Shown here: in pieces, positions 10,263 through 54,231 of the stretch
Layout: every line of letters starts with the position of its first letter
Numbering within the stretch: the stretch's first letter is position 1
From: Candidatus Omnitrophota bacterium
GTDB lineage: Bacteria > Omnitrophota > Gorgyraeia > Zapsychrales > Zapsychraceae
Direction of reading: 5' to 3'
Assembly (NCBI GenBank): GCA_015233115.1
Contig: JADFYJ010000014.1
Location: 11,028 to 75,027, forward strand
DNA: 64,000 nt
Notes under the pieces: generated by a model
The model's input: only the letters and a program-made list of their open reading frames with translations
What the model was told of the DNA's origin: nothing
Database searches by the model: none
Translations under genes and position numbers: made by a program

Positions 10263-10281
10263 GGGTTTATAGGGATTGATC

Positions 10282-37032: not shown

Positions 37033-37479
37033 ATGAAAGAACTTAAAAGAACTAATACAAAAAAATTGGGTGAGGTACTCGTCGAGAGGGGAGTCATTAA
37101 TCACCAACAGCTTAACAAGGCACTGGAAATTTGGGAGACTAAAGGCGGTCTCATGGGTGAAACGTTAGTTGATCTGAAATTTGCCACTGAAGAAGATATC
37201 GCGCAAGCCTTAACCTGCCAATATGGGTTTCCTTTCTTGCCTTTGACGAATTATGAAGTTGATCCTGCTGTTATTCATTCCGTACCTAAAAAAATATGCC
37301 AGGAATATGTTTTGGCTCCGATTGATAAAATTGGTAAAAGTATAACCTTAGCCATGGCCAATCCTTTAAATACGTTCGCGATCGAAGAGATTGAAAAAGT
37401 AACAGAATGTTCAATCCAGGTTTTTGTCAGTACCGGGACAGAAATTAAGAAGTTTTTAGAAAAAAACTACGTGGAGTGA
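37033..37479 (+). CDS. Stand-alone MshEN/GspE-N-like domain protein (putative c-di-GMP receptor)
   Basis: Two tandem 24-residue motifs KLGEVLVERGVINHQQLNKALEIW and LMGETLVDLKFATEEDIAQALTCQ fit the MshEN consensus RLGxxLVxxGxIxxxQLxxALxxQ. Confidence 0.6.
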   Translation: MKELKRTNTKKLGEVLVERGVINHQQLNKALEIWETKGGLMGETLVDLKFATEEDIAQALTCQYGFPFLPLTNYEVDPAVIHSVPKKICQEYVLAPIDKIGKSITLAMANPLNTFAIEEIEKVTECSIQVFVSTGTEIKKFLEKNYVE

Positions 37480-37480
37480 T

Positions 37481-39259
37481 ATGGCCTTCCTAAAGGACCG
37501 GATCAAAGAAATTTTGTTGAGGGATAAACATCTCTCTGCCTCTGATCTTGAAAAAGCGCTGGGTGAACAACAGCGTAAAGGCGGGGAATTAAGCCGGATT
37601 CTTATTGATATGAAATTGATTGATGAAGATACGTTGACGAGCGTATTGAGTCAAAGCCTAGGTATTCCTGTCATTAGTATTACCCGCATTAAAATAGACC
37701 CTCAAGTGATTAAATTTATAGCTCGCGATGTTGCCTTGAAATATCAAATTATGCCCGTTTCTTTAATTGGCCAGACTTTAACTTTGGCTATGGCTGATCC
37801 GTTGAACATTTTTGTTATTGATAATGTCAAGGCGGTAACCGGGTATACGATTAATCCCATTATCGGGCGCAAAGCGGAAATCGCGGGCGCGATTGAACAA
37901 TATTACAAAAAAACGGAAGCGCCTAAAGAAGAAGCTTCAGAAGAATCTCGTGAAGAGTCTTTGGATAAAATTAGTGATTTAATGGGAGATATGGCGAATG
38001 CGGAAGAGCTTGATGAGATTAAGTCGGATGAATTTATCGGGTCTTCGTCGGGTGTGGAAGAGATTAAAGATGAGGCGCCGATTATCCGTCTGACGGATTC
38101 GATCGTCCGGCAATCGGTTCTTATGAAATCCAGCGACGTTTTTATTGAACCTTTAGAAAAAGAAATGCGGGTGAGGCTGAGAGTTGACGGGGTTATCCGG
38201 GAGATTGACCGTCTACCCAAAGCGATTTTGGCGCCATTGGTATCGCGCATTAAAGTTATTTCAAATCTGGATATTTCCGAACACCGGCTCCCTCAAGATG
38301 GACGCTTTAAGATGATCGTGTCCGCGGATAAAGAAGTTGATTTCCGGGTGAATGTTTTACCGACCGCGTTAGGGGAAAAGGTGTGTTTACGCGTGCTGGA
38401 CCAGACGGGTACGGTTTTGGATGTGGAAAAACTAGGGTTTGAGGCCAGTTCTTTACGGCGGTTAAAAGAATGCGCGCTTAAACCGCATGGCATGATTTTG
38501 ACTTGCGGCCCTACGGGTAGTGGAAAAACCACCACGTTGTATTCGATTCTCAAACACGTCGACTCTCCGGAAAAAAATATTGTGACGGTGGAAGATCCGG
38601 TCGAATACCAGTTTAAGGGAGCGTGCCAGGTCAATGTCAAGCCCGCCATGGGACTGACGTTCGCGACGAGCTTGCGCTCAATTCTTCGGCAGGATCCGGA
38701 CATAATTATGATCGGAGAGATCCGTGACGCGGAAACTTTGGATATTGCCGTGAAAGCCGCTTTGACGGGACATTTGGTATTGAGTTCGCTGCATACCACT
38801 ACCGCTTCGGGTTCTGTGGTGCGGATGGTGAATATGGGGGTAGAACCGTTTTTAATTTGTTCTTCGGTTTTAGCGATTATTGCTCAGCGGCTTTTAAGAA
38901 AAGTCTGCCAGAATTGTAAAGAGCCCTATACTCCTCCGGAGGCGGTGATTGAAAAAGTGGGACTGCGGCAGGTGACCCAAGACAAAGAAATTATTTTATA
39001 CCGTGGAAAAGGCTGTGAGCAATGTTTTAAGAGCGGATATAAGGGCCGGGTGGGGATTACGGAGATTTTGGTTATGACGCCGGCGCTTAAAGAAGTGATT
39101 ATGGCCATGGCTGGTGAACCCAAAGTCAAAGAGGTTTCCCGCCGTGAAGGGATGATCACCATGCGGGAGGACGCGTTATTGAAAGCTTTGAAAGGGTTAA
39201 CGACGTTAGAAGAAGTTCTACGGATCACTGCGCCGGATGAGATATTGGAGAAAAAGTAA
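37481..39259 (+). CDS. pilB: Type IV pilus assembly ATPase PilB/GspE family
   Basis: Walker A GPTGSGKTTT; N-terminal MshEN/GspE-N-like repeats (RIKEILLRDKHLSASDLEKALGEQ); C-terminal CxxC...CxxC tetracysteine. Confidence 0.85.
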   Translation: MAFLKDRIKEILLRDKHLSASDLEKALGEQQRKGGELSRILIDMKLIDEDTLTSVLSQSLGIPVISITRIKIDPQVIKFIARDVALKYQIMPVSLIGQTLTLAMADPLNIFVIDNVKAVTGYTINPIIGRKAEIAGAIEQYYKKTEAPKEEASEESREESLDKISDLMGDMANAEELDEIKSDEFIGSSSGVEEIKDEAPIIRLTDSIVRQSVLMKSSDVFIEPLEKEMRVRLRVDGVIREIDRLPKAILAPLVSRIKVISNLDISEHRLPQDGRFKMIVSADKEVDFRVNVLPTALGEKVCLRVLDQTGTVLDVEKLGFEASSLRRLKECALKPHGMILTCGPTGSGKTTTLYSILKHVDSPEKNIVTVEDPVEYQFKGACQVNVKPAMGLTFATSLRSILRQDPDIIMIGEIRDAETLDIAVKAALTGHLVLSSLHTTTASGSVVRMVNMGVEPFLICSSVLAIIAQRLLRKVCQNCKEPYTPPEAVIEKVGLRQVTQDKEIILYRGKGCEQCFKSGYKGRVGITEILVMTPALKEVIMAMAGEPKVKEVSRREGMITMREDALLKALKGLTTLEEVLRITAPDEILEKK

Positions 39260-39481: not shown

Positions 39482-41200
39482 ATGGCTAAGACGGTAAAAG
39501 ATACAATTTTGGATGAATTGGTGGGTTCGGGAAAGTTTCCGCCTAAAGTGTTGGAAGAGGCTAAACAGCTTCACCTGCGCGAAAAGATTCCTTTTGAGAA
39601 AGCTTTGATTAAAAAAGGCTTGATTACAGAGGAAGATTGGCTGTTAATGCTGGTTTCTGAACTGGGGATACCATTCGTAAATTTGGCCCGGTATAAATTA
39701 ACGCCCTACTTGCAGGAAATCATTCCAGAAAATATTGCCCGTCAGTATAAAATTGTTCCTTTGGTGGATACGCAATTTTCTGTGACCATCGCGACAGCTG
39801 ACCCCTTAAATGTTTACGCGTTGGATGATCTTAAAAACATTACAGGGAAACGGATTGATGTGGTGTTGAATACAGAGAGTGAAATTATCAAGAAAATTGA
39901 TAATTTTTACGGTGATCCAACGAAACGGGATGTCCCGGAATTTAAGGCTCAGGATGCGGCTTTTGAAGAATTCGAGCTGGTATCTCAAAAAGAAGAAGAT
40001 GACGCGAATTCAGGAGGCGAGGCTGTTGATGAAAGCGAAAAAGCACCAATCATCCGTATGGTTAATCTGATATTGAAAGAAGCCTTGCGTCAACGGGCGT
40101 CGGATATTCATATTGAACCTATGGAAGAGTGCGTCCGGGTGAGGTATCGGATTGATGGGGTTTTGCGGGATGTGCTGACCATTCCTAAAAAAAATCAAAA
40201 CGCGATGGCAACGCGTATCAAGATTATGTCGCGGTTGGATATTACCGTCAATCAAGCGCCGCAGGATGGACGTTTTAAGCTAACGTTAAAAGAAAAGAGC
40301 GTGGATTTTCGCGTTTCCATTCTGCCTGCCACATTTGGCCCCAAAGTGGTTATGCGGATTTTGGATCGTTCCAAATTAGCGGTTGGGGTGGACGGTCTGG
40401 GATTAACTCCTAAAGCTTTGCAGTTGATCAAGGACGGAATTAAAAAACCATTTGGGATGATGTTAGTCACTGGCCCGACAGGAAGCGGAAAATCTACGAC
40501 TTTGTATTCTATTGTGAATGAATTAAATACAGTGGAAAGAAATATCATTACTGTAGAAGATCCGGTTGAATATTTGTTAGAAGGTTTAACTCAGATTCAG
40601 GCCATGCCGGAAATCGGGCTCACCTTCGCGGAAGGCTTGCGTTCCATTTTACGTCAGAGTCCAGACGTGGTCATGGTGGGAGAAATCCGCGATGGGGAGA
40701 CTGCGGATATCGCGATCAAAGCGTCTCTGACTGGGCAATTGGTATTGTCAACGCTGCATACCAACGACGCGGCTGGGGCATTGACGCGTCTGGTGGATAT
40801 GGGAGTGGAGCCGTTTTTAGTGGCTTCCAGTTTGGTGCTGGTCACAGCTCAGCGCTTGTGCCGCAGGATTTGCCCTCACTGCAAAGCAGAAATAAAAATT
40901 GATCCGGATGTGTTAAAACGTTTGGGGGATATTGTTCCGAAGGACTCCATTTTTTATCAAGGCAAAGGTTGTGAGCAATGCAAAAACACCGGCTATACCG
41001 GCCGTTTATGTATTACAGAAGTTTTAGACATTGATGATGAGATACGAATGATGCTGTTGCAAGGAAAGACGTCTGACGAGATTAAAAAATATTCCCGCGA
41101 AAAAAAAGGTATGGCTACGTTGTATCAAGATGCTATGGCTAAATGTTTGCAAGGAATTACCTCTCTAGAAGAGGTCTTTAGGATTACGTCTAGTGACTAA
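39482..41200 (+). CDS. Second PilB/GspE-family secretion ATPase paralog
   Basis: Walker A GPTGSGKSTT; colinear with preceding gene; C-terminal CPHC...CEQC. Confidence 0.85.
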   Translation: MAKTVKDTILDELVGSGKFPPKVLEEAKQLHLREKIPFEKALIKKGLITEEDWLLMLVSELGIPFVNLARYKLTPYLQEIIPENIARQYKIVPLVDTQFSVTIATADPLNVYALDDLKNITGKRIDVVLNTESEIIKKIDNFYGDPTKRDVPEFKAQDAAFEEFELVSQKEEDDANSGGEAVDESEKAPIIRMVNLILKEALRQRASDIHIEPMEECVRVRYRIDGVLRDVLTIPKKNQNAMATRIKIMSRLDITVNQAPQDGRFKLTLKEKSVDFRVSILPATFGPKVVMRILDRSKLAVGVDGLGLTPKALQLIKDGIKKPFGMMLVTGPTGSGKSTTLYSIVNELNTVERNIITVEDPVEYLLEGLTQIQAMPEIGLTFAEGLRSILRQSPDVVMVGEIRDGETADIAIKASLTGQLVLSTLHTNDAAGALTRLVDMGVEPFLVASSLVLVTAQRLCRRICPHCKAEIKIDPDVLKRLGDIVPKDSIFYQGKGCEQCKNTGYTGRLCITEVLDIDDEIRMMLLQGKTSDEIKKYSREKKGMATLYQDAMAKCLQGITSLEEVFRITSSD

Positions 41201-41536: not shown

Positions 41537-42739
41537 ATGCCGACTTTTAAATATGTAGCCAAAGATGCTGAATCCAAAAGTTTGACCGGTAAAATTGCGG
41601 CAGATGATAAGAATGCGGTGGTTGAAGAGTTACGCAAACGGAAACTGACTATTATTTCTGTAACGGAAATGAAGGGCGAAAAAGTCAAAACCGGCTCCCG
41701 TAGAAAAGTTAAAGCGGAAGAAATTGTGCTTTTTGCCCGTCAGTTAGCCACGATGGTGGAGGCAGGTATGCCAATCTTGCAGGGCTTAAACGCTTTGGCG
41801 GACCAGACCACCAATGAAGGGTTTAAAAAAGTTTTGACTGAAGTTGAAACAGATATCAAGCATGGTTCGAGTTTATCCTCTGCATTTGCCAAACATCCGC
41901 ATGTGTTTAATAATTTATTTATTAATCTCGTAAAAGTCGGGGAAACCGGCGGTATTTTGAGTACAGTTTTAGATCGGGTTTCCACGTATATGGAAAAAAC
42001 TTTGAGTTTACAGCGTAAGGTGAAATCCGCTTTAGTTTATCCGAGCGTAGTCGTATCTATGGCGATCATTATCACTGTGGTGCTTTTGATTAAAGTCGTT
42101 CCCACTTTTACGGGAATTTATTCTTCTTTCGGGAAAGAATTGCCGGCGATGACGCAAGTACTGGTTAACGCGAGTAATTTTCTGCAGTCTTATATAATTT
42201 TTATTATTATTGCCATTGTTGGTTTAGGGTTTGGGCTTGCGCGCTGGCATAAAACTGAAAAAGGCGCTTTGGTGATTGATGGTGCTGTGTTACGTTTGCC
42301 GGTTTTTGGAGAGCTTTTACGTAAAGTCGCGGTGAGTCGGTTTACCCGTACGCTGGCTACGTTGGTTCAGAGCGGGGTGCCTATTCTCGAATCATTGAAT
42401 ATTGTTGAAAAAACTATTGGAAATAAAGTTTTGGAAAATGTTATCAAAGATGTTCAAGTGAGTGTCAGGCAAGGGGAAAGCTTATCTGTGCCGTTGGAAA
42501 AGAGCACAGTATTTCCTCCCATGGTCACCCGCATGATTTCCATTGGAGAAAAATCCGGGCAGATGGAAAAAATGCTTTTAAAAGTTTCTGAATTTTATGA
42601 TGATCAAGTGGACACGGCTGTTGATGGCTTGACGAGTATGATTGAACCTCTTATCATTGGGGTCATGGGAGTGGTGATCGGTTTTATCGTTATCGCGCTT
42701 TTTATGCCGATCTTGTCAATGTCGCAGTTGGTGAGCTAG
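41537..42739 (+). CDS. pilC: Type IV pilus inner-membrane platform protein PilC/GspF family
   Basis: 400 aa, two GspF-type repeats with 3 TM helices; follows PilB genes. Confidence 0.85.
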   Translation: MPTFKYVAKDAESKSLTGKIAADDKNAVVEELRKRKLTIISVTEMKGEKVKTGSRRKVKAEEIVLFARQLATMVEAGMPILQGLNALADQTTNEGFKKVLTEVETDIKHGSSLSSAFAKHPHVFNNLFINLVKVGETGGILSTVLDRVSTYMEKTLSLQRKVKSALVYPSVVVSMAIIITVVLLIKVVPTFTGIYSSFGKELPAMTQVLVNASNFLQSYIIFIIIAIVGLGFGLARWHKTEKGALVIDGAVLRLPVFGELLRKVAVSRFTRTLATLVQSGVPILESLNIVEKTIGNKVLENVIKDVQVSVRQGESLSVPLEKSTVFPPMVTRMISIGEKSGQMEKMLLKVSEFYDDQVDTAVDGLTSMIEPLIIGVMGVVIGFIVIALFMPILSMSQLVS

Positions 42740-42845: not shown

Positions 42846-43781
42846 ATGTATAAATTTTGCTGCATGGTAATAGCGTTAATAATGTTGGCCGCCACACCAG
42901 TGTTGGCTCAGGAAGGTCGGGTGACTACCCGGGATTGGAACGATTCTTTGCGCGCGTTGAATGAGAGTTTGCAGCAGGTTGACGCGAGAAATCAATGGCT
43001 GGCTTTCCAGATTGAGTTCATGAAGGGGGATATGTCGCGTCTTAAAGCTCAGGCAGATGAAATGAATCAGCAGGCCGTGGACAATCCAGGGCAGTTTGCG
43101 TTTAACAATAAACAAGAAGTGGAAGTTTTCCAAAAAGAAGCGGACGGAGTATATCAAAGTTTAAAAGCTATTGCTAAAGAGCGGCAAAATTTGGAAATCC
43201 GGTTGGTTGAAAAATCAAAAGAGGGAGTTCAACTCAAATCAGATATTGAGCAACTCACCAAAACGGTTGCAGAGTTAAAAGATCAATTGAGGTACTCCAT
43301 TTCGGGAACAGACCCGGATATAGAGCGCGAAAAAAAAGATTTAAGTGCTTGGATTAAAGACGCGGAAAAAAATTATAATAAGGCTCAGACGGAATTGGCA
43401 AGAGTGAAAAGGAAAAATGAGCCCGATGTCCGGATCAAAGATTTAGCAAAACACCGGGATGATTTACAGGCTAAGGTTGATAAATTAAAGACAGAGATGT
43501 CTCAGCTGGGACAAAATAAAGAAGAGTCAATTTCTGAATACGAAAAGAGGGCAAAATTCTCGCAAGACAATCTCAATGCCCTAGACGAAGAAATCGTTAA
43601 GTTGGAAAAACGTAAAGAAGAGTTAAATGTTATTCTAGATAATATTGCTAATAAGCTTGATAAGAATAATCTGCACTTAGATACACCGAAAGATAATCAG
43701 CAAGAATTAGAGAATAATTTGCAAATGTTAAAAAATGAAAATGCTCAACTTAAAGATAAGTTGAGCGCTTTTAAAAAATAA
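42846..43781 (+). CDS. Secreted coiled-coil protein (hypothetical)
   Basis: Signal-peptide-like N-terminus then continuous heptad-rich E/K/L/Q sequence. Confidence 0.35.
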   Translation: MYKFCCMVIALIMLAATPVLAQEGRVTTRDWNDSLRALNESLQQVDARNQWLAFQIEFMKGDMSRLKAQADEMNQQAVDNPGQFAFNNKQEVEVFQKEADGVYQSLKAIAKERQNLEIRLVEKSKEGVQLKSDIEQLTKTVAELKDQLRYSISGTDPDIEREKKDLSAWIKDAEKNYNKAQTELARVKRKNEPDVRIKDLAKHRDDLQAKVDKLKTEMSQLGQNKEESISEYEKRAKFSQDNLNALDEEIVKLEKRKEELNVILDNIANKLDKNNLHLDTPKDNQQELENNLQMLKNENAQLKDKLSAFKK

Positions 43782-43799: not shown

Positions 43800-44366
43800 G
43801 TGCCAGTGGCTGAAAAATTTGATGCGCAAGTTATTGCGGCAAAACTTATGGGAAGTGTTCAAGACTTAATGGAAAAGACCTGCAAGTCTAAACTTTCGGA
43901 AAAACCAGTTATGGAGACGAAAGAAATCATTGAGTATGGCAGTAGGATGCGCGTGTTAGGACTTTCAAAATTCGACGGACCGTGTTATGTGGCTGCGGTT
44001 AATTTATATTTAAATCAGAAAAAATCCGAAGATAAAGATGCCTGCGGGGTCATTGTGAGTTATTGGGAACAGGAGACAGCGGAGGGTTTTGTCCGCGCTT
44101 TACAAAAGGGTTTAGACCTTGAAGACCCGGATGTGATATTGGATAGTTGCGGAGAATTTTGTAATAGTATTGCCGGCCAATTTAAAAACGAGTTAGCGGC
44201 GTTTGGTTATCCGGAGCTAAATCTTTCTACGATTATCAAAGCCCGGAACGAAATTGATGAGGGAGTTGATTTTCCTTTTAGCGAAGGAGAATATTGCGAG
44301 CTGTCATTTAAAGTAAAAAATAAAAAAGTGGTGGTTGTTTCTTTGGTTATGGCGCCCCCCGCATAA
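43800..44366 (+). CDS. CheX/CheC-family phosphatase-like protein
   Basis: DSCGEFCNSIAGQF fits the CheC/CheX/FliY D-x3-E-x2-N-x3-G active-site motif; located in the che cluster. Confidence 0.4.
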   Translation: MPVAEKFDAQVIAAKLMGSVQDLMEKTCKSKLSEKPVMETKEIIEYGSRMRVLGLSKFDGPCYVAAVNLYLNQKKSEDKDACGVIVSYWEQETAEGFVRALQKGLDLEDPDVILDSCGEFCNSIAGQFKNELAAFGYPELNLSTIIKARNEIDEGVDFPFSEGEYCELSFKVKNKKVVVVSLVMAPPA

Positions 44367-44393
44367 AGACTGGATTTTAAAGGAGCTCATTTT

Positions 44394-44810
44394 ATGACAC
44401 TGATGAATGTCCCTCAAGAAAGAAGAAAATATATCCGGCTTCCGCTGAAATGCATATTAAGGTGTTCTCCTTTTGCTGGACATGGTTCAGAATTGTGGTC
44501 AGGCGAAGTGACCACGGCTACTAAAAATATCAGCGCTGGCGGTATTTTATTTGAAAGCCGGCACCCTTATGAATTAGGAGCTTTATTGCAAGTCGAGGCG
44601 GACGTTCCGGGTTGGGAAAAATTTAAAACCGAATTTTATAAAGAAGAGCAGATTTCTCGGTCTTTGCCAGTGGTTATTTTGGTGTCGGTCGTGCGTGTTG
44701 AGGCGATTGAGATTGGGAGGAAATACGATATTGGAGCCGCTTTTGTGGGGATTGACCGGGGACATCAAGGAGCGCTGGTTAAATATATCAAAAGCCGGGT
44801 GAAGGAGTAG
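44394..44810 (+). CDS. PilZ-domain c-di-GMP-binding protein
   Basis: RRKYIRL (RxxxR) and NISAGGILFES (D/NxSxGG) PilZ motifs. Confidence 0.75.
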   Translation: MTLMNVPQERRKYIRLPLKCILRCSPFAGHGSELWSGEVTTATKNISAGGILFESRHPYELGALLQVEADVPGWEKFKTEFYKEEQISRSLPVVILVSVVRVEAIEIGRKYDIGAAFVGIDRGHQGALVKYIKSRVKE

Positions 44811-44817
44811 AAACCCA

Positions 44818-45333
44818 ATGCCAGAAATTAATTTTGAAGAGAGTACGAGCCGGGTGGCTAGGACTATAAAACAATTTGTGTGTTTTAAATTGGCGGCAGA
44901 AGAATACGCGATTGATATTAGTTATATTCAGGAAGTGATCCGGGTGGTGACGATTACTCAGGTGCCGCAGATGCCGGAGTTCTGCTGGGGTGTAATTAAT
45001 GTCAGGGGAAATGTTCTTCCGGTTTTTGATTTGCGGCGGTTGTTTCATTTGCCAGAAAAAAAATTTGATGCACAATCCAAATTTTTAATCGCTTCAATCG
45101 GAAATTTTATTGCCAGTTTTATTGTGGATGAGATTGTGGATAATATTAAATTAGAATCATCCGCTATTGATCCAACTCCCGCGGTTAAAATGAAAATCGA
45201 TGCAGATTGTATTAAAGGATTAGGCGAGTTGGATGACCGGATGATCGTGATCATCAATTTAGAAAAAGTCCATGATCATATTTTGAAAATAATTAATACT
45301 TTTTCAAAAATTAAGGGACCTGTCCATGAATAA
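44818..45333 (+). CDS. cheW: Chemotaxis coupling protein CheW
   Basis: FVCFKLAAEEYAIDISYIQEVIR...INVRGNVLPVFDLRRLF. Confidence 0.85.
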   Translation: MPEINFEESTSRVARTIKQFVCFKLAAEEYAIDISYIQEVIRVVTITQVPQMPEFCWGVINVRGNVLPVFDLRRLFHLPEKKFDAQSKFLIASIGNFIASFIVDEIVDNIKLESSAIDPTPAVKMKIDADCIKGLGELDDRMIVIINLEKVHDHILKIINTFSKIKGPVHE

Positions 45334-45748
45334 AAACCATCGGATTCAAGCGGATAACCGCCGAGTGTATACCCGCATTGACCGCCCGCATTTGCTTAAA
45401 GTCAAAATGTTTGATCTCAAGGATCAGAGTTCGGTGCGGAAAATAGAAGCCATTACTCGGAACGTATCTGCCGGGGGGTTAGCATTTGAATCGGAACAAT
45501 TTTTTGAATCCGGAACAGTTTTGGAGATTGAGCTAGATACGCCGGGATGGGAAAAACTCAGAGGCGTCTTTGACGGAGAAAAGGGCGATGCCTTGCCCTC
45601 AGCGGTGATGCTCTTGGCCAAAGTTATCCGGACAAGAGTTATTGAAGAGGATTTGTATGATATTGCTGTTTCTTTTGTTGGGATCGATGACCGGCATCGC
45701 CATGCTCTGACGAAATATGTCCAAGAACGAGAAAACAGCGCGGGTTAA
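45326..45748 (+). CDS. PilZ-domain c-di-GMP-binding protein (second)
   Basis: RRVYTRIDR and NVSAGGLAFES motifs. Confidence 0.75.
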   Translation: MNKNHRIQADNRRVYTRIDRPHLLKVKMFDLKDQSSVRKIEAITRNVSAGGLAFESEQFFESGTVLEIELDTPGWEKLRGVFDGEKGDALPSAVMLLAKVIRTRVIEEDLYDIAVSFVGIDDRHRHALTKYVQERENSAG

Positions 45749-45761
45749 AAGGAGGGGATGA

Positions 45762-46706
45762 GTGTCTTCGGAAAAAATTCGACTTTCAAATGTGCTATTA
45801 GACGTTGGAACGAATGAATTGGAAATTGTGGAATTTTGCCTGGCGGATAGTTTTTATGGGATTAATGTCATGAAGGTCAGGGAGATTATCCGCTGTCCAG
45901 AAAATATTGTAGCTGTGCCTCATGCTCATCCGGCTGTCGATGGTGTGATTAATGTCCGGGGCACGATTATTCCGGTTGTGAATTTGGCGCGTCAATTTGG
46001 CATCGATGATACCAAAGCCACTAAAGCGGTTCAGCGCATTATTATTTCCCAGTTTAATAAATTAACAATAGGTTTTCTGGTCAGTTCTGTCTCACGGATC
46101 CACAGGTTTTCGTGGCAACAGGTCGTCGCTCCGTCTGGCATGATTTCTAATGGTGATACTTATGTTGTTTCTATGGTCAAGATGGATGAAAAAATAATTT
46201 TATTATTAGATTTTGAAAAAATAGCTTTTGACGTTAGTCCTGAAGCACGCCCCCCGCAAGTGGAAGCTTCGCCGGTTAAAGAATTGCCAGCGGCATTTGA
46301 CCGCTCGGCTAAAACCATTCTGGTGGCAGAAGATTCGAAGTTTTTAAGGGCTGTTATGGTCGAGGCCTTGTCGAAATTAGGTTACAAAGTGATCGCGACG
46401 AGTGATGGAGAAGAAGCGTGGCAAGAGTTTGAAACTCATAATGCTAACAATGCGGCTGGCGGGGTTCCCATCGATTTATTAGTCAGCGATATTGAGATGC
46501 CGCGGATGGATGGGTTACATTTGGTGCGGAAGATAAAGGTTTCTAACGGATTTCGTAAGGTTCCTTGCATTGTTTTTTCATCTATGATAAATACCGATTT
46601 GTCCCAGCGTTGTGCCGCTATTGGGGTGGATGTCACGATCACTAAGCCGGAAATTAGTAAGCTTGTTGAAGCGGTAGAGGGCCATTTCAATCAAGGCAGG
46701 GCATGA
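45762..46706 (+). CDS. cheV: CheV (CheW-like domain fused to receiver domain)
   Basis: N-terminal CheW-like domain (LEIVEFCLADSFYGINVMKVREII...INVRGTIIPVVNLARQFG) and C-terminal REC (ILVAEDSKF...DLLVSDIEMPRMDG). Confidence 0.8.
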   Translation: MSSEKIRLSNVLLDVGTNELEIVEFCLADSFYGINVMKVREIIRCPENIVAVPHAHPAVDGVINVRGTIIPVVNLARQFGIDDTKATKAVQRIIISQFNKLTIGFLVSSVSRIHRFSWQQVVAPSGMISNGDTYVVSMVKMDEKIILLLDFEKIAFDVSPEARPPQVEASPVKELPAAFDRSAKTILVAEDSKFLRAVMVEALSKLGYKVIATSDGEEAWQEFETHNANNAAGGVPIDLLVSDIEMPRMDGLHLVRKIKVSNGFRKVPCIVFSSMINTDLSQRCAAIGVDVTITKPEISKLVEAVEGHFNQGRA

Positions 46707-47533
46707 ATATCGACATAAAAGATTCTGAATATAAAGCGGTCCATGACTTGATGTACCGTTACGCGGGCGTCCATCTGACAGAAAAGAAAAAGCCGTTGAT
46801 TGTGGCGCGGTTAAGGAAACGGCTGGTGGAGTTTTCTTTAAACACGTTGGGCGATTACATCAAATATTTGCAAACTCATTTAAAAGAAGAATTGCCCAAT
46901 TTTATTAGTGCTTTAACGACGAATGAAACATATTTTTTCCGGCATACGAAACAATTTAATTTATTTTTTGAAGAAATACTACCTGAATTGTGCAGCCGCA
47001 AAAAAAGGGCGGGTCAGAAACTGATTAAAATTTGGTCTGCGGCATCATCGACAGGGGAAGAAGCCTATTCCATCGCCATAGTTTGCCAGGAGTTTATGGC
47101 TAAGCATCCGGGTTGGCAATTCCAAATTTATGCGTCAGACATTGATTATCAAGTACTGCAGAAGGCCCGGGAAGGGATTTACGGTGAAAAAAGTGTGGCA
47201 AAAGTTACAGAATCTTTGATGCGTAAATATTTTACGGCGAGGCATGCGGGAATTATAAAGCGGTTCGAGTTAAACCATCAGATAAAACAATGTGTGACGT
47301 TTGAGAATCACAATTTAATGAATCCGCCGAAACGCGCGGATTATGACGTAATTTTTTTACGGAATGTTTTGTACTATTTTGATAAATCGACTCAACAAAC
47401 CGTAGCCAGCTTATTAGAATCCGCATTATTGCCGGGCGGATATTTTTTTGTCAGTCTATCAGAAAATTTACATGATCGTCCCAATCAATTAGAATATTTG
47501 AGAAATGGAATTTACCGCAAGGCTGATAGATAG
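46703..47533 (+). CDS. cheR: Chemotaxis protein methyltransferase CheR
   Basis: CheR all-alpha N-domain plus SAM methyltransferase (KIWSAASSTGEEAYSIAI). Confidence 0.85.
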   Translation: MNIDIKDSEYKAVHDLMYRYAGVHLTEKKKPLIVARLRKRLVEFSLNTLGDYIKYLQTHLKEELPNFISALTTNETYFFRHTKQFNLFFEEILPELCSRKKRAGQKLIKIWSAASSTGEEAYSIAIVCQEFMAKHPGWQFQIYASDIDYQVLQKAREGIYGEKSVAKVTESLMRKYFTARHAGIIKRFELNHQIKQCVTFENHNLMNPPKRADYDVIFLRNVLYYFDKSTQQTVASLLESALLPGGYFFVSLSENLHDRPNQLEYLRNGIYRKADR

Positions 47534-47569
47534 GTCACAAAGGCACAAGGTCACACCTTAAAGTTAGGA

Positions 47570-48655
47570 ATGTTTATGTTGAAAAAAATTAAAGTGGTGA
47601 TCGCGGATGATTCGGCGTTTTTTCGACAGGTTCTGAAAACTGTTTTGGAAGAATCCAGGAAGATCGTGGTCGTTGCCGCGGCGAAGAATGGGAAAGAAGC
47701 GGTTGAATTTGTCAAAACTCTTAACCCGGATATTTTGATTTTGGATTGTGATATGCCGGTGATGAATGGTTTGGATGCTTTAAAGCGGGTCATGGATGAG
47801 AACCCCTTACCGGTTTTGATGTTTAGCGCGTTAACACAGGAAGGGGCGAAAGAGACGTTGACCGCTTTATCATTGGGGGCTGTGGATTTTTTGCTCAAAC
47901 CCGCGGGGCATGCCCATGCGCTAGATGAAGTCGCGGAAGAATTGATCAAAAAAATTGAAACAATTGTCCGCCAGGCCAAATGGCGGGTTTCTCTTCCTTC
48001 GGTCAACCGGCCGAAGCTGTCCAATGGGGTTGAAACAGAAAATGTTCAGGTTCAAGACCGCCGGCCGGCTGTGGAGTTGAGGCGAAGAACAGTCGATTTG
48101 ATTGCTATGGGATCATCAACCGGCGGAGTGCAGGCGTCAACGAGAGTATTGATGGCTTTGCCAGAAAATACGGCCCCGATTGTATGGGTTCAGCATATGC
48201 CTCCGGAATTTACCAAAAATTTTGCTGAACGGTTAAATGGGTTGTGTCAAATGGAAGTGAAAGAGGCCAAAGATGGAGACCTGGTGAAGCGGGGAATTTG
48301 TTATCTGGCGCCAGGCGGATTTCAGATGCGCTTGTTAAAAAAAGGTAATGATTATTGTGTGAGTGTTAAATTAGGTGAAAAAGTTTCCGGTCAATGCCCG
48401 TCTTGTAATGTCTTGTTTGATTCGGCGGCAGAATATTTTGGTGACAATGCGCTGGGGATTATATTAACGGGCATGGGAGACGACGGAGCCTCTGGCTTAG
48501 CCAAAATGCACCAAAAAGGCGCATATGTGATCGGCCAGAATGAAAAATCCTGTGTGGTTTACGGGATGCCTAAAGCCGCGTATAATTTAGGCGCGGTGGA
48601 TATTGAACTGGATATTCAAGAAATTTCGGATGCCATTATTAAAGCCGGAGGTTGA
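47570..48655 (+). CDS. cheB: Chemotaxis methylesterase/deamidase CheB
   Basis: N-terminal REC (VVIADDSAFFRQ...ILDCDMPVMNG) plus methylesterase domain (IAMGSSTGG; GMGDDGASG). Confidence 0.9.
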   Translation: MFMLKKIKVVIADDSAFFRQVLKTVLEESRKIVVVAAAKNGKEAVEFVKTLNPDILILDCDMPVMNGLDALKRVMDENPLPVLMFSALTQEGAKETLTALSLGAVDFLLKPAGHAHALDEVAEELIKKIETIVRQAKWRVSLPSVNRPKLSNGVETENVQVQDRRPAVELRRRTVDLIAMGSSTGGVQASTRVLMALPENTAPIVWVQHMPPEFTKNFAERLNGLCQMEVKEAKDGDLVKRGICYLAPGGFQMRLLKKGNDYCVSVKLGEKVSGQCPSCNVLFDSAAEYFGDNALGIILTGMGDDGASGLAKMHQKGAYVIGQNEKSCVVYGMPKAAYNLGAVDIELDIQEISDAIIKAGG

Positions 48656-48656
48656 G

Positions 48657-49082
48657 ATGATAAGAAATATTATCTTAGTCGTGGATGATGAAGAGCATAT
48701 GGTGAGCTTGTTGAAACAAGCTTTGGCGGATGATCATACGGAAGTGATTGGTGCTTCTGATGGACAAGAAGCTTTGGATTTGGTATCGAACCGGCATGTG
48801 GATTTGATCATTGCGGATAACAATATGCCTAAAATTCTGGGAGAAAATCTTTTTTTAGAAATTAAAAAAATGGATCCATTTGTTCAGCTGATCATGATTA
48901 CGGGATATCCGTCAGTCACAGTGATTGTTAAGATGCTGGAAGCGGGAGTATCAGATTTTTTAATCAAGCCTTTTGATCTAAATCAGATTCAATTGGTGGT
49001 TAAAGAAACATTAGGGAGGATCGAACGCTGGCGCAATTTGCGCAAAGAGTGGATGGCGTATAAGAAAAGAGGAATCGAGTAA
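48657..49082 (+). CDS. Single-domain response regulator (CheY-like receiver)
   Basis: ILVVDDEEHMVSLL...DLIIADNNMP...FLIKPF; ATG at 48657 two nt after the cheB stop. Confidence 0.8.
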   Translation: MIRNIILVVDDEEHMVSLLKQALADDHTEVIGASDGQEALDLVSNRHVDLIIADNNMPKILGENLFLEIKKMDPFVQLIMITGYPSVTVIVKMLEAGVSDFLIKPFDLNQIQLVVKETLGRIERWRNLRKEWMAYKKRGIE

Positions 49083-49140
49083 CCGAGTGACAGAGCAAAA
49101 ATGTTGATGGATAAAAGAAAAATTATATTAAGGGAGAATT

Positions 49141-50097
49141 ATGGGCAGCGAAAATAATGAATTGATAGGAGAGTTTATCGCGGAGAGTGAGGAATACTTG
49201 GCCGTTTTAAACCAGAAATTGCTCAAGGCTGAAGATGCCATTAAATCCGGCGTGGATATGTCTGCGGAAGAATTAAACGCTATGTTCCGTTCTGTGCATA
49301 CGATTAAAGGGACAGCCTCCTTTTTTGATTTGCAAAAGATCGTTCATTTAACGCATGATATGGAAGCCGTTTTATCCCGGATAAAAAAATTTGAAATGAA
49401 ATTGACGGCGCCTATCATAGATGTATTATTCGGTGCTTTTGATACATTACAAAAATTGGTCACGAATTTAAAAGAACAGGGCTCATTGGATTCAGTGGAT
49501 ATTAAAAAAAATATTCAGGAAATCGCGTTGATCTTAGATGAAAAGCCTGTTGAACCAAGTATTAAAGGGACTCAGCCGAGTTTGGGTTCGAATCAACCGG
49601 TTCTCCCTGTTGTTGCGGCAGGGACAGTTATCCCGGCGGCCGTTTCTATTCCGCCCGCCGCGGTTCAGGTCCCCAAAGGAGAACAGGATTTTGGGGTCAT
49701 GGAGATCAATGATAGATTTATGGAAGCTTTTGTTTCGGATATCGAAGATAATGTTGAGAATTTTAATAATGATCTGATCAAGCTGGAACAAACTGGGAAT
49801 CTCGATTTGGTCGGGAATTTGTTTCGTTATGCTCATACTGTAAAAGGTTCGTCCGGCGTCGTTAATTGTCAGCCTATGACAGAGGTGTCCCATAAGATGG
49901 AAAGCATTTTGTCAGTTTTTCGCGAGCAGAAAAAAACTATTGATACAGATACGGTCACTTTGCTTTTAGATGGAATTGATACGGTTAAATTTATTTTAAA
50001 TGCAATTAAAAAACAGACTCATCTGGTTTTAGATTTGCAGGCCATTACCGATAAATTAGATCAGCAATACAAGAAATTGATCAACCCTGGAATTTGA
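49141..50097 (+). CDS. cheA: CheA N-terminal fragment: two tandem HPt (P1) domains
   Basis: Two HPt signatures, FRSVHTIKGTASFF and FRYAHTVKGSSGVV, separated by a Pro/Val-rich linker; no kinase domain. Confidence 0.75.
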   Translation: MGSENNELIGEFIAESEEYLAVLNQKLLKAEDAIKSGVDMSAEELNAMFRSVHTIKGTASFFDLQKIVHLTHDMEAVLSRIKKFEMKLTAPIIDVLFGAFDTLQKLVTNLKEQGSLDSVDIKKNIQEIALILDEKPVEPSIKGTQPSLGSNQPVLPVVAAGTVIPAAVSIPPAAVQVPKGEQDFGVMEINDRFMEAFVSDIEDNVENFNNDLIKLEQTGNLDLVGNLFRYAHTVKGSSGVVNCQPMTEVSHKMESILSVFREQKKTIDTDTVTLLLDGIDTVKFILNAIKKQTHLVLDLQAITDKLDQQYKKLINPGI

Positions 50098-50121
50098 GTG
50101 TGCTGGAAGGAGTCACTGAAT

Positions 50122-51519
50122 ATGAATGAATCTGCCCCAATATCTGCGGCGCACAATACGGGAAAATCCGCTCCAGTGGAAGTTTCAACATTACGGATTG
50201 ATTCCCGAAAATTGGATTTATTGATGAATATGTCTGGAGAGTTGGTCACCTTACGCGCACAATTTTCTCGTTTAGTGGCATTATTCAGAAATGAGCTGAT
50301 GACCTACAAGGAAATGACTAAGGCTTTGGAAGAATTGAAAGATTCATCGCTGCAAATGGTGTCCAGCAAATTGGATGTCGAACGACGAAAAAAGAGCGAA
50401 GAACAGTTTGTACGGTTGATAGGAAATGTCGAGCAATATAAAAATGAGCTTAATTTTACGGCTCAAGTGCATTCGTTTGATGAGCTGACCGGGATGCTGG
50501 GCAAATTAGCTTCTGATATTCAGTCGGGTATTATGCAAACGCGTATGATTCCAGTGGAATGGGTTTTTACCCGCTTCAAACGGGTCATCCGGGACATGGC
50601 TAAAGAGTTAAATAAAAATGTTGATTTGAAAGTAGAAGGCGAAGATACGGAATTGGATAAAAAAATTGTGGATTGTTTAGCTGATCCACTTACGCATATG
50701 ATCCGAAATGCCATGGACCATGGAATTGATGATAAAGAAACCCGGCTTAAGTTGGGCAAACCGGAAATAGGAACTGTTTTTTTAAAAGCCGCTAACCGGG
50801 GTAACACCATTTTTATAGAAGTCGGAGATGATGGACGGGGTATTGATCCGGAACGGTTGGTTAAAAAAGCAATTGAAAAAGGAATTATCAATCAAGAACA
50901 GGCCCAGCGGATGAGTGAAAAAGAGAAATTACATTTGATGTTTTTACCGGGTTTTAGCACTGCAGAAGCGGTGACGGCTATTTCTGGACGCGGTGTGGGG
51001 CTGGATGTCGTGACGAATATGCTTAATGCCGTTAATGGGACTATTGATATTGAAACAAAAATTGATATGGGGTCTAAGTTTATTTTAAAAATACCTTTAA
51101 CGTTAGCTATTATTCAAGCGTTATTGATTAAGATCAATGAACAGGTATTTGCGGTTCCTATTGAGGCAGTCATTGAGATTATTAAAGTGAGTACGGGGGA
51201 TATATATTCCATTGAAGGAAATGATACTGTGAAATTGCGCGGGCACGCTTTAAGTTTAGTCAGTTTAGAGCAGGTCATCAAGATACAGGGATGTTCAGAA
51301 AAAAATGGAGATGGTTTAAAAACAGTCGTAGTCATTGGTGATAAAGAAAATCGCATCGGGGTGTTAGTGGACAGTCTGATTGGCGAAGATGAAATTGTCA
51401 TTAAACCTTTATCAGAACACTTCAGTCATGTTAAAGGCGTGAGCGGGGCATCCATTTTAGGGGATGGAAATGTGGTGTTGATCTTAGACCCAAATGCCAT
51501 AATCAGCGAAGCGCAATAG
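50122..51519 (+). CDS. cheA: CheA C-terminal fragment: dimerization (P3), HATPase (P4) and CheW-like (P5) domains
   Basis: STLRIDSRKLDLLMNMSGELV (P3); HMIRNAMDHGID N-box; GRGVGLDVV G2 box; C-terminal CheW-like domain; AAGGAG RBS then ATG 50122 directly after the upstream stop. Confidence 0.8.
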   Translation: MNESAPISAAHNTGKSAPVEVSTLRIDSRKLDLLMNMSGELVTLRAQFSRLVALFRNELMTYKEMTKALEELKDSSLQMVSSKLDVERRKKSEEQFVRLIGNVEQYKNELNFTAQVHSFDELTGMLGKLASDIQSGIMQTRMIPVEWVFTRFKRVIRDMAKELNKNVDLKVEGEDTELDKKIVDCLADPLTHMIRNAMDHGIDDKETRLKLGKPEIGTVFLKAANRGNTIFIEVGDDGRGIDPERLVKKAIEKGIINQEQAQRMSEKEKLHLMFLPGFSTAEAVTAISGRGVGLDVVTNMLNAVNGTIDIETKIDMGSKFILKIPLTLAIIQALLIKINEQVFAVPIEAVIEIIKVSTGDIYSIEGNDTVKLRGHALSLVSLEQVIKIQGCSEKNGDGLKTVVVIGDKENRIGVLVDSLIGEDEIVIKPLSEHFSHVKGVSGASILGDGNVVLILDPNAIISEAQ

Positions 51520-51536
51520 CAGCGGAAAAGGCAGCA

Positions 51537-52025
51537 ATGAATGAAATGATTTTGATCCAGGTTGGAGTAGCTGATATCAAAGTCAGCAAAGCTCCGGCTA
51601 TGCTGATGACGAACTTAGGCTCATGCATTGCGGTATGTTTATATTATGAGCAAGGGCAGATCGGAGGCATGCTGCATTTGATGATGCCCCGCGCGGACGA
51701 AAAAGCTTTGGAATACCGGGGCTTTAAAAAAGAAAAATATGCGAATACTGGCATCCGTGAATTGGTGTATCAAATCAAACAGCAGTTTAGAGTTGACCAT
51801 TCGATGCTGACCGCCAAAATTTTTGGCGGCGGCCGTATTCTTCAAAATGTTTCCTTGGATATTGGGGCGGATAATGCCAAGGCGGCGCAGGACATTCTCC
51901 GGGAATTAGGAATCCGCATCATAGCATCTAAAGTTGGCGGGACCAAAGGGTATAATATTAGGTTTGATCTGTCGACGGGAAAAGTGCGTTGTCAGATTTT
52001 TGGCGAACAAGAACAGGAGTTTTAA
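51537..52025 (+). CDS. cheD: Chemoreceptor glutamine deamidase CheD
   Basis: IKVSKAPAMLMTNLGSCIAVCLY...GGMLHLMMP matches the CheD core with catalytic Cys. Confidence 0.8.
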   Translation: MNEMILIQVGVADIKVSKAPAMLMTNLGSCIAVCLYYEQGQIGGMLHLMMPRADEKALEYRGFKKEKYANTGIRELVYQIKQQFRVDHSMLTAKIFGGGRILQNVSLDIGADNAKAAQDILRELGIRIIASKVGGTKGYNIRFDLSTGKVRCQIFGEQEQEF

Positions 52026-52026
52026 C

Positions 52027-52635: not shown

Positions 52636-52650
52636 ACGTAAAGGACATTT

Positions 52651-53019: not shown

Positions 53020-53024
53020 TTTTG

Positions 53025-53075
53025 AAAAGACACAAGTCACATGTCACATGTCACATGTTACAAGTTACCTGTGAC
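53025..53075. repeat. GTCACAT heptamer tandem array between cheY and hybrid kinase
   Basis: gtcacatgtcacatgtcacatgttacaagttacctgtgacac. Confidence 0.7.
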
Positions 53076-54231
53076 ACAACAAAGGTTACATATTTTGCCT
53101 GCCATATTGATCGTTGATGATTCAGAAGTGGAATGCGCCCTTTTAAAAGGGATATTGCATAAATCGTTTTCTGCATACGAAGTGTTAATTGCCCATCATG
53201 GCCGGGAAGGCCTGGAGCTGTTGGCGCAGAGAGACGTTGATATTGTCTTGTCTGATATGATGATGCCGGTTATGAATGGCTGGGAGTTTTGTGAAATTAT
53301 AAAAAAAGATCCCCGAACCAAAGATGTTCCAGTCCTTTTATTTTCTTCTTTAGAGCAGGTCCAGGAAAAAGCCAAAGGTTTTGAAGCGGGCGCGGCCGAT
53401 TATATTGTCAAACCAATCGAATCCGGTGAAGTCATCGCACGCATTAAAGTCCATTTAGGGCTTAAACATTATCAGGATCAATTGAAAGACCTTAACCGAG
53501 AGTTAAAAGAAGCTCAAGACGCTCTGGTGCAAAGTGAAAAAATGTCAGCGGTCGGAACTTTGGCGGCAGGGATTTCTCATGAATTTAATAATGTTTTGGC
53601 GATGATGAAAGGTTATATCCAGTTATCCCAGCAAAAGAATAAACTAGACGACGTGAAACCTGCCCTTGCGGTCATGCTGGACTTGGTCGAACGGGGGCAA
53701 TTTTTAGTAAGATCTATGCTGGATTTTTCCAAAGGCGGGATGTCGGAAAACAAGCAAAAAATAGTTTTAGCACAGATAATCGATAAAGTCAGGGTGCTTA
53801 TGGAACCCATGTTTAAGGCGCAGGGTGTTCAGGTTGAGCTTCAGGGTAAATCCTCGTGTGAGTTGCAAGGTTATCCTAATCAATTGTCTCAAGCGATTAT
53901 TAATTTTGCCAAGAATGGGATTGAAGCCTGTGAAGGCCGTACGGAGAAAAAAATTACCATTGAATTCGGTAAATCTTTGTTCGATAGGGTGGAGTGCGCG
54001 TATATCCGGGTCATTGATACCGGCGCCGGAATCCCTGAATCAATTCGGAAATGTATTTTTGATCCTTTTGTGACCACCAAAGGTGTTATCGCCGGAGGCA
54101 ATCGTTCCACGGCTGGCACGGGGTTGGGTTTAACTGTTTCGTATAATATTATCAAAAAACACCACGGTGAAGTCAAAATCGAAAAGACCGGCTCTGCAGG
54201 AACGACGATGCTAGTTACTATACCTCTATAA
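53041..54231 (+). CDS. Hybrid receiver-histidine kinase (REC-HisKA-HATPase)
   Basis: N-terminal REC (ILIVDDSEVE...VLSDMMMPVMNG), H-box ISHEFNNVLAMM, G-boxes (IDTGAGI; GTGLGLTVS). Confidence 0.8.
   Translation: MSHVTCYKLPVTQQRLHILPAILIVDDSEVECALLKGILHKSFSAYEVLIAHHGREGLELLAQRDVDIVLSDMMMPVMNGWEFCEIIKKDPRTKDVPVLLFSSLEQVQEKAKGFEAGAADYIVKPIESGEVIARIKVHLGLKHYQDQLKDLNRELKEAQDALVQSEKMSAVGTLAAGISHEFNNVLAMMKGYIQLSQQKNKLDDVKPALAVMLDLVERGQFLVRSMLDFSKGGMSENKQKIVLAQIIDKVRVLMEPMFKAQGVQVELQGKSSCELQGYPNQLSQAIINFAKNGIEACEGRTEKKITIEFGKSLFDRVECAYIRVIDTGAGIPESIRKCIFDPFVTTKGVIAGGNRSTAGTGLGLTVSYNIIKKHHGEVKIEKTGSAGTTMLVTIPL

Follow-up and report, generated by a model that had tools for sequence, protein, structure and literature searches.

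Two PilZ proteins in an Omnitrophota chemosensory operon and their candidate roles in c-di-GMP signalling

We analysed a 64-kb stretch of DNA from a Candidatus Omnitrophota bacterium (assembly GCA_015233115.1, contig JADFYJ010000014.1; hereafter the window), in which two small PilZ-domain proteins, PilZ1 and PilZ2, are encoded among chemosensory (che) genes. The explanation that we favour, and hold to be moderately probable, is a joint one: both proteins are canonical PilZ proteins, PilZ1 serves the che operon as an adaptor for cyclic di-GMP (c-di-GMP), and PilZ2 gates a phosphorelay made up of the single-domain receiver RR159 and a receiver (REC)-histidine kinase. Gene neighbourhoods in other genomes support the view that the link between the family of these proteins and chemosensory genes is conserved well beyond chance and, judged from the sequences, a c-di-GMP input into the chemosensory pathway of this operon class is conserved with it. 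The proposed link to type IV pili is drawn from gene neighbourhood.

Two predicted c-di-GMP receptors of a stand-alone PilZ family

An initial annotation of the window had placed PilZ1, CheW, PilZ2 and CheV in this order, and the open reading frames (ORFs) and their Pfam matches bore this out. The cutoff of the Pfam PilZ model (PF07238) is 22.5 bits.

44394..44810, + strand: PilZ1, 138 amino acids (aa); Pfam PilZ 36.7 bits; motifs RKYIR and NISAGG
44818..45333, + strand: CheW, 171 aa; Pfam CheW 119 bits; 58% identical to the first CheW of locus L001
45326..45748, + strand: PilZ2, 140 aa; Pfam PilZ 32.0 bits; motifs RVYTR and NVSAGG
45762..46706, + strand: CheV, 314 aa; Pfam CheW 113 bits and Response_reg 71 bits

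The overlaps of stop and start codons described for these genes hold for one junction, that of CheW and PilZ2 (8 nt); CheW is separated from PilZ1 by 7 nt, and CheV from PilZ2 by 13 nt. Both PilZ proteins keep intact c-di-GMP motifs, as had been annotated. Reading the translations, we located R11-KYI-R15 and N45-I-S47-A-G-G50 in PilZ1, and R13-VYT-R17 and N46-V-S48-A-G-G51 in PilZ2. The two proteins are 37% identical (E 2e-26), which identifies them as paralogues.

AlphaFold2 models, built from 47-sequence alignments, had a mean predicted local distance difference test score (pLDDT) of 85.3 for PilZ1 and 77.7 for PilZ2. Both models showed a six-stranded barrel and one long C-terminal helix (residues 122-137/139). 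When PDB was searched with Foldseek, the best matches of both models were c-di-GMP-bound PilZ structures (MotI 5vx6, Alg44 4rt0, BcsA 4p00 and YcgR 5y6g); PA0012 was also among the top matches solved with c-di-GMP, and MapZ came lower. A search of PDB with the profile of the family described below gave only a weak match to YpfA/MotI (E 0.0028); chains of MapZ did not appear among the matches at E<=1. NCBIfam held no curated family for PilZ1, and PilZ2 gave a sub-threshold match to TIGR02266 alone. By their motifs and models, PilZ1 and PilZ2 are canonical single-domain PilZ proteins, and they most likely bind c-di-GMP. A different kind of small PilZ-fold protein is PilZ (PA2960/XAC1133) of the PilZ-FimX-PilB system, which is tied genetically and physically to PilB (PMC8389850, PMC11656802). 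This type II PilZ has lost both RxxxR and D/NxSxxG, does not bind c-di-GMP and has an incomplete barrel, whereas PilZ1 and PilZ2 have both motifs and a full barrel and are therefore not of type II. No FimX-like gene was found in the window.

PilZ1 and PilZ2 belong to a distinct and apparently undescribed family of stand-alone PilZ proteins marked by a 'PGWEKxKxEF' insertion. We defined its members as stand-alone proteins of ~130-145 aa with a Trp-containing insertion after strand 4, the motifs VVRxE and YDIGxxFxGID, and a score of at least 90 bits on the family profile. Both window proteins have all of these features, with scores on the family A3 profile of 161 bits (PilZ1) and 144 bits (PilZ2). 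The insertion, 'PGWEKxKxEFxK', lies between barrel strands 4 and 5 and forms a short helix and a low-confidence loop in the models. An exhaustive profile search returned 243 cluster representatives at E<1e-10, and 1581 at the looser limit of E<1e-3; almost all were stand-alone proteins of 125-150 aa. The family, whose typical member has ~135 aa and should be soluble, was found in Omnitrophota, Auribacterota and other uncultured bacteria. In family alignments of 47-50 members, R11, R15 and G50 were invariant and S47, W74, V99, R101 and L128 nearly so; the tryptophan of the insertion (W74/W75) is thus among the nearly invariant residues. Furthermore, both c-di-GMP motifs were kept in 181 of the 211 members of 110-200 aa that we retrieved.

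The paralogues have separate sets of relatives. The closest relatives of PilZ1 are 46-54% identical to it and are encoded inside che operons, and in a rough neighbour-joining tree PilZ1 grouped with such che-embedded PilZ proteins (up to 54% identity). PilZ2 has a single close relative, P0007 of locus L007 (74% identical), with which it formed a separate long branch of the tree; it keeps the PGWEK insertion but has lost the 'EFYK' part of it. We considered whether PilZ1-CheW and PilZ2-CheV might be the products of a recent tandem duplication, and rejected this on two grounds. PilZ1 shares more identity with PilZ proteins from other genomes (54%) than with PilZ2 (37%), and the two CheW domains are old paralogues, both represented in related operons: compared with the two CheW proteins of L001, the window CheW domains gave 58% against 30-35% identity.

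A chemosensory operon class that carries the family

Pattern scans of GTDB genomes and JGI metagenomes yielded 160 loci, and nine more were obtained by exact look-up. The ORFs of these loci were labelled by phmmer comparison with the window proteins, and key cases were checked with Pfam. For a tally of gene neighbourhoods, the stand-alone members (at least 90 bits) were clustered at 70% identity, which gave 20 clusters. We found che genes no more than 5 kb away in 12 of these clusters, and a CheW-domain gene directly adjoining in 9. Two further che-embedded cases, L171 and L172, lie outside the tally. The typical operon reads CheX-REC-CheW-CheW/CheV-PilZ-[MCP]-CheR-CheB-CheA(two Hpt)-CheD-CheC-CheY, where MCP stands for methyl-accepting chemotaxis protein, and is often followed by REC-histidine kinase (HK), REC and CBS genes. 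The orders at the individual loci were as follows.

L168: CheW-CheW-PilZ-CheR-CheB-CheA-CheD-CheC-CheY-REC/HK-REC-CBS
L169 and L172 (same order): CheX-REC-CheW-CheW-PilZ-CheR-CheB-CheA-CheD-CheC-CheY-CBS
L170: REC-CheX-CheV-PilZ-MCP-CheW-CheR-CheB-CheA-CheD-CheC
L171: CheX-REC-CheW-CheV-PilZ-MCP-CheR-CheB-CheA-CheD-CheC-CheY
L008/L009, L013 (Auribacterota), L010 (Omnitrophota) and L088-L090: similar orders
L001: PilZ after CheY and before the REC and REC/HK genes

Across the related operons a loose module, CheW-CheW/CheV-PilZ, is conserved, and in the window both PilZ1 and PilZ2 abut cheW or cheV. CheX-like homologues of 187-196 aa head the clusters L008/L009, L169, L170, L171 and L172. The window cluster is likewise headed by its CheX-like gene and not, as had been annotated, by PilZ1. 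Nor does PilZ1 lie immediately downstream of PilC, since the genes of a 311-aa coiled-coil protein (42846-43781) and of the CheX-like protein (43800-44366) intervene. PilZ1 would be this genome's copy of a component that appears to be built into one chemosensory operon class.

How might such a component act? In the mechanism that we propose, c-di-GMP-loaded PilZ1 would have its target protein in the signalling array or in the adaptation/phosphorelay branch, and through this binding the cellular c-di-GMP level would bias chemosensory/kinase output; the process under control may be pili, flagella or something else. CheW/CheV, the most constant neighbour, is the leading candidate partner, with CheR, an MCP or a receiver domain as alternatives. 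PilZ2 would gate the phosphorelay of RR159 and the REC-histidine kinase in the manner of HapZ and SagS, which would be possible without the Che core.

By analogy, the closest functional counterparts of the window PilZ proteins appear to be the MapZ-CheR1 pair, the MCP-PilZ fusions and the HapZ-SagS pair. The logic of PilZ1 is probably that of MapZ-CheR1 or of the MCP-PilZ fusions, carried out by a different family and probably with a different partner. MapZ and HapZ are single-domain PilZ adaptors, which act on CheR1 and on a kinase receiver domain, respectively (bioRxiv 10.1101/2020.02.11.943704). The likeness to MapZ (PA4608) of P. aeruginosa lies in gene order, as the PilZ gene directly precedes cheR in three of the related operons (L168, L169 and L172). 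There are several differences. No sequence relationship to MapZ was detectable, the Foldseek match to 5xly_B had 10-15% identity and ranked 16-28, and MapZ is without the PGWEK insertion. MapZ contacts CheR1 through conserved residues on two C-terminal helices; the PilZ1 and PilZ2 models show one such helix. The MapZ cluster has been reported as proteobacterial, whereas the PGWEK family occurs in Omnitrophota, Auribacterota and other uncultured lineages, and its most constant neighbour is CheW/CheV and not CheR.

In the MCP-PilZ fusions (Tlp1 and Aer of Azospirillum brasilense, Cbp1 of Azorhizobium caulinodans) c-di-GMP is sensed at the receptor array (PMC3604760, PMC6406031, PMC6454048). The PilZ gene stands directly before an MCP gene in five of the related operons, which resembles these fusions; here, however, PilZ is a separate protein and not the C-terminal domain of a receptor, and it comes from another class of operon and from other phyla. 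HapZ (PA2799) binds the receiver of a kinase, SagS, at high c-di-GMP, which matches the order PilZ, REC, REC-histidine kinase seen in L007 and L001. Most family members, in contrast, adjoin CheW/CheV and not a hybrid kinase. A further precedent is FtgA of Actinoplanes missouriensis, which docks on both CheA and CheW and passes the signal on to the motility apparatus (PMC11522434). FtgA resembles the PilZ proteins in being a non-canonical accessory protein encoded in a che cluster, but it is a 290-aa protein of unknown function, is not described as a PilZ or c-di-GMP-binding protein, and has a flagellar target (PMC11522434).

In the literature, which was covered incompletely, we found no PilZ gene beside cheW or cheV, no PilZ protein that binds CheW or CheA, and no PilB-PilZ fusion; a 2024 review of PilB cofactors (PMC11656802) does not mention such a fusion. 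Known routes of c-di-GMP into chemotaxis are the MapZ-CheR1 pair, receptor-fused PilZ domains and motor brakes. To these, a stand-alone PilZ regularly encoded next to CheW/CheV in the operon would add another, and one found in uncultured phyla. Should the coupling layer prove to be the partner, the sensitivity or the assembly of the whole array could be under c-di-GMP control, and not that of one receptor or enzyme. Together with the PilB-PilZ fusions described below, the family suggests that these bacteria, which are small and possibly dependent on hosts, rely heavily on c-di-GMP in their decisions on motility and attachment.

Two further arrangements were seen during the survey. In 11 metagenome contigs (among L092-L107, for example L094:9941-16045) we found a second operon type, headed by a family PilZ (149 aa) and continuing with CheY (118 aa), a CheZ-like protein (199 aa), a 510-aa triple-CheW protein, CheA (~720 aa) and a CheW-domain protein of 308 aa; MCP genes lie close by. 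At L013:10313-10744, the gene next to the family PilZ on its downstream side encodes 143 aa and has a PilJ N-terminal sensor domain (PF13675, 71.6 bits). It is followed by a separate MCP signalling gene, and these two genes may represent a split receptor.

The companions of PilZ2 and the alternative explanations

The proposed role of PilZ2 draws on locus L007, which belongs to a sister Omnitrophota genome, the metagenome-assembled genome (MAG) GCA_015233195.1. This locus shares the MshEN, PilB, PilB and PilC genes with the window at 85-88% identity, the coiled-coil protein at 52% and the CheX-like protein at 61%. It encodes one PilZ, which is 74% identical to PilZ2 and only 41% identical to PilZ1, and which is followed directly by the orthologue of RR159 (68%) and then by the REC-histidine kinase (62%). 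Counterparts of the window's 69-aa ORF, REC-GerE regulator, HTH-REC protein and PAS kinase lie further downstream. None of CheW, CheV, CheR, CheB, CheA, CheD, CheC and CheY was found at the L007 locus, and its intergenic gaps are too small to hold remnants of them. The orthologue of PilZ2 thus persists without che core genes at its locus, which argues that PilZ2 does not need the array. Clear orthologues of RR159 were found only in L007 (68%) and L001 (46%), and each lies between a family PilZ and a REC-histidine kinase. The hybrid kinase of the window (53041..54231) has counterparts of 62% identity in L007 and 38% in L001, both encoded directly after the RR159-type receiver. We read PilZ2 as a lineage-specific, faster-evolving and divergent paralogue, whose constant companions would be the CheX-like protein, RR159 and the hybrid kinase.

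The genes of the CheX-like protein and of the PilZ2, RR159 and REC-histidine kinase orthologues are contiguous at L007:9342-12000. In the window (43800-54231) the same four genes are split by PilZ1 and CheW, by CheV, CheR and CheB, and by Hpt, CheA, CheD, CheC and CheY. The che core may have been lost in the sister or gained in the window; either route requires several events.

Several observations weigh against the joint explanation. As the partner of PilZ1, the gene neighbourhood would allow CheR, an MCP or a receiver as well as CheW/CheV, and the gene 3' of PilZ varies, encoding CheR, an MCP, a PilJ-N-domain protein or a Cache-domain protein. The exact order PilZ-CheW-PilZ-CheV occurred, among the loci retrieved, in the window alone, whereas the looser module recurs in relatives. 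Between six and eight clusters of the family lie outside che contexts (STAS-PilZ in Auribacterota, PilZ-CYTH and others), and the family is therefore not exclusively chemosensory; two of the non-che clusters in the tally sit on 1-kb contigs. No gene for a diguanylate cyclase or phosphodiesterase (GGDEF/EAL) was found in the 64-kb window. Finally, the division of roles between PilZ1 and PilZ2 rests on one sister MAG and a rough neighbour-joining tree.

The initial annotation had suggested, from gene position, that the PilZ pair couples the array to type IV pili under the control of c-di-GMP. Such coupling would be physical or functional, and the PilB/PilC machine would be the output of the Che pathway. 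We consider this unlikely. The genes from MshEN to CheV do form a tight run on one strand with no convincing terminator, though the promoter and terminator scan was uninformative in this respect (17 terminator-like sites at 36.8-55.9 kb against 17.3 in shuffles, none of them in the relevant gaps). Furthermore, L007 shows synteny with the window over both the pilus genes and the CheX/PilZ2 block, and MshEN c-di-GMP sensors are encoded at the locus. Control of PilB by PilZ is also a habit of the phylum, in that most PilB proteins of Omnitrophota have a C-terminal PilZ fused to them, although the two of the window do not. However, of the loci with a family member, the window and L007 were the only ones where pilus ATPase/PilC genes came as close as 5 kb, and che operons elsewhere that include a PilZ1-type gene lack pilus neighbours. 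L007 keeps the pilus genes and PilZ2 with no che core gene at the locus, and the window has no pilin, pilMNOPQ (PilM-Q) or pilT genes. Of the coupling first proposed, the conserved link between the PilZ family and chemosensory genes has held, whereas the pilus part comes down to neighbours in two genomes.

The make-up of the chemosensory system also argues against this coupling. The Pil-Chp system consists of PilJ, of ChpA with many Hpt domains and a C-terminal receiver, and of PilG/PilH; to our knowledge, this class has no CheC, CheD, CheX or CheV. The window system has in common with it the idea of a Che-type pathway and che genes that adjoin pilus genes. Unlike Pil-Chp, it has CheC, CheD, CheX and CheV, a two-Hpt CheA without a receiver, and no MCP gene in the window. 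Judged by this gene content, the system is not Pil-Chp-like.

Likewise unlikely, in our estimate, is that both PilZ proteins act as HapZ does: loaded with c-di-GMP, they would bind receivers (of CheV, CheY, RR159 or the REC-histidine kinase), stopping phosphotransfer or diverting it, and would not act on the receptor-CheW-CheA lattice. The HapZ-SagS precedent and the contiguity of PilZ, an RR159-type REC and a REC-histidine kinase in L007 and L001 are consistent with this, as are the CheY-like receiver encoded directly after PilZ on the 11 metagenome contigs and the presence of CheV, which bears a receiver, as the upstream neighbour in several operons. In L168, L169, L172, L013 and L088, however, the gene upstream of PilZ encodes a CheW that has no receiver domain. 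The joint explanation retains the HapZ-like action for PilZ2.

We also considered, as a rather unlikely possibility, that the PGWEK PilZ proteins are hitherto unrecognised accessory subunits in a whole class of arrays, seated on the CheW/CheV layer, where c-di-GMP would make them switch the activity or the assembly of the array, and that in this Omnitrophota lineage the duplicated pair would in addition signal to the MshEN-PilB-PilB-PilC motor, by a route from Che to pilus that is unrelated to Pil-Chp.

In a further alternative, the PilZ proteins, and above all PilZ2, would be trans-acting counterparts of the PilZ domain fused to PilB, and would regulate PilB1/PilB2 with the che genes as mere neighbours. 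The MshEN-T2SSE-PilZ architecture in >100 loci points this way, as does the order PilB, separate PilZ, PilC in L083, L084, L135 and L160. Both the window and L007 have unfused PilB proteins, with PilZ2 encoded four genes downstream of PilC, and the PilB-PilZ-FimX system offers a precedent (PMC8389850, PMC11656802). Nevertheless, the fused domains are without the PGWEK insertion and scored 45-78 bits on the family profile, compared with 144-177 bits for the stand-alone che-type proteins (the exception among fused proteins, L123, reached its 125 bits from two PilZ stretches), and PilZ1-type proteins occur without pilus genes. PilZ2 keeps the insertion and is therefore derived from the che-type family, so that we rejected its origin as a split-off PilB domain; the trans-acting role itself we regard as very unlikely.

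Finally, it is highly improbable that the two proteins are motor effectors of the MotI/YcgR type, which would act as a clutch or brake on a flagellar motor encoded elsewhere and simply have their genes in the che operon. In favour of this, both find their best structural and sequence match in MotI of B. subtilis (its PilZ domain), and the che-encoded FtgA acts on FliN after its release from CheA/CheW. Against it, the identity to MotI is only ~20%, and no flagellar gene was found in the window or, where annotated or labelled, in the ~10-kb flanks of related loci. Moreover, the N-terminal PilZN (YcgR_N) domain of YcgR and MotI is missing from PilZ1 and PilZ2 (138-140 aa, one Pfam domain each), which are thus not members of that group, and the Foldseek match covers the PilZ half of MotI alone (target-normalised TM-score 0.43-0.46).

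The PilB-PilZ fusions are an observation in their own right. A PilB of ~715 aa with the architecture MshEN-T2SSE-PilZ and with c-di-GMP motifs was encoded at >100 loci (within L016-L087 and L108-L167), most of them from Omnitrophota; examples are L020:8216-10366 and L123:8036-10363, the latter with two PilZ stretches. In a few genomes PilB is followed by one or two separate PilZ genes (~126-168 aa) and then by PilC (L076, L083, L084, L135 and L160).

Gene content of the window

All credible genes from ~29.5 kb to 58.6 kb are on the + strand. MreB, MreC, PBP2, RodA and a PMT/TPR protein are encoded, in this order, upstream of the pilus block. There follow MshEN, two PilB/GspE ATPases, PilC, the coiled-coil protein, the CheX-like protein and the PilZ1, CheW, PilZ2 and CheV genes listed above; after CheV come CheR, CheB, RR159, the two-Hpt protein, the CheA core, CheD, the CheC-like protein, CheY and the REC-histidine kinase, downstream of which lie further two-component genes.

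37033..37479, + strand: stand-alone MshEN-domain protein, 148 aa; Pfam MshEN 62 bits; L007 orthologue 85% identical
37481..39259, + strand: PilB/GspE-type ATPase 1, 592 aa, with an MshEN N-domain; Pfam T2SSE 447 bits, and MshEN
39482..41200, + strand: PilB/GspE-type ATPase 2, 572 aa; Pfam T2SSE 451 bits, and MshEN
41537..42739, + strand: PilC/GspF platform protein, 400 aa; Pfam T2SSF 222 bits, two repeats; 87.5% identical in L007
42846..43781, + strand: secreted coiled-coil protein, 311 aa; N-terminal hydrophobic signal-like segment; 52% identical in L007
43800..44366, + strand: CheX-like protein, 188 aa; Pfam CheX 27.0 bits, exactly the cutoff; 61% identical in L007
46703..47533, + strand: CheR methyltransferase, 276 aa; 41% identical to the Pfam-annotated CheR of L001
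47570..48655, + strand: CheB methylesterase, 361 aa; 61% identical to the Pfam-annotated CheB of L001
48603..49082, + strand: RR159 single-domain receiver; Pfam Response_reg 90.8 bits
49141..50097, + strand: N-terminal part of CheA with two Hpt domains, 318 aa; Pfam Hpt 105 bits, in two stretches
50098..51519, + strand: CheA core (dimerisation, ATPase and CheW-like parts); Pfam H-kinase_dim, HATPase_c and CheW; 56% identical to the CheA of L001
51537..52025, + strand: CheD, 162 aa; 53% identical to the Pfam-annotated CheD of L001
51934..52635, + strand: CheC/CheX-like phosphatase; Pfam CheX 26.2 and CheC 17.1 bits, both sub-threshold; 40% identical to the CheC of L001
52651..53019, + strand: CheY, 122 aa; 58-71% identical to the CheY that ends related che operons
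53041..54231, + strand: REC-HisKA-HATPase hybrid kinase, 396 aa; Pfam Response_reg, HisKA and HATPase_c

Neither of the two ATPases has a C-terminal PilZ. ATPase 1 scored 630 bits against the PilB model TIGR02538, slightly under the cutoff of 675.65, and the two ATPases are 41% identical as measured across the L007 copies. The MshE-type c-di-GMP motif model of NCBIfam (NF053729, cutoff 38) was passed by the stand-alone MshEN protein (57.9 bits) and by PilB1 (40.4 bits), and gave no match to PilB2. By its sequence, the stand-alone MshEN protein is likely a c-di-GMP receptor of the pilus ATPase module, and stand-alone MshEN genes (~150-160 aa) precede pilB in many Omnitrophota loci. For the 311-aa coiled-coil protein, Pfam and NCBIfam returned nothing beyond sub-threshold matches of coiled-coil type.

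Two of the listed ORFs are probably too long, to judge from alignment with their orthologues. That of RR159 begins at a TTG and overlaps cheB by 53 nt; a start at ATG 48657 would give a protein of 141 aa. The CheC-like ORF also begins at a TTG, overlaps cheD by 92 nt and would, with a start at ~52024, encode ~203 aa.

The two-Hpt ORF and the CheA core (49141-51519) are separated by an in-frame TGA at 50095-50097, and translation could restart behind an AAGGAG site at ATG 50122, the likely start of the core. The two-Hpt ORF aligns with the N-terminal end of single-chain CheA. The CheA orthologues in L001, L168, L169, L171 and L172 are single proteins of 916-956 aa, which carry ~100 extra residues exactly at the position of the break, indicating that the window CheA has lost a segment. 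The split may reflect a genuine two-gene CheA, read-through or an assembly error.

Between the hybrid kinase and the REC-GerE regulator lies a 69-aa ORF (54322-54531), whose HisKA-like match of 21 bits falls short of the threshold of 26.9. Its conservation in L007, at 57% identity, suggests that this small gene is probably genuine. Three large TPR-repeat proteins (675, 668 and 602 aa) are encoded in a row at 8192-14080, upstream of housekeeping genes, and a fourth protein of PMT_2/TPR type at 34952-36829, just before the pilus ATPase block.

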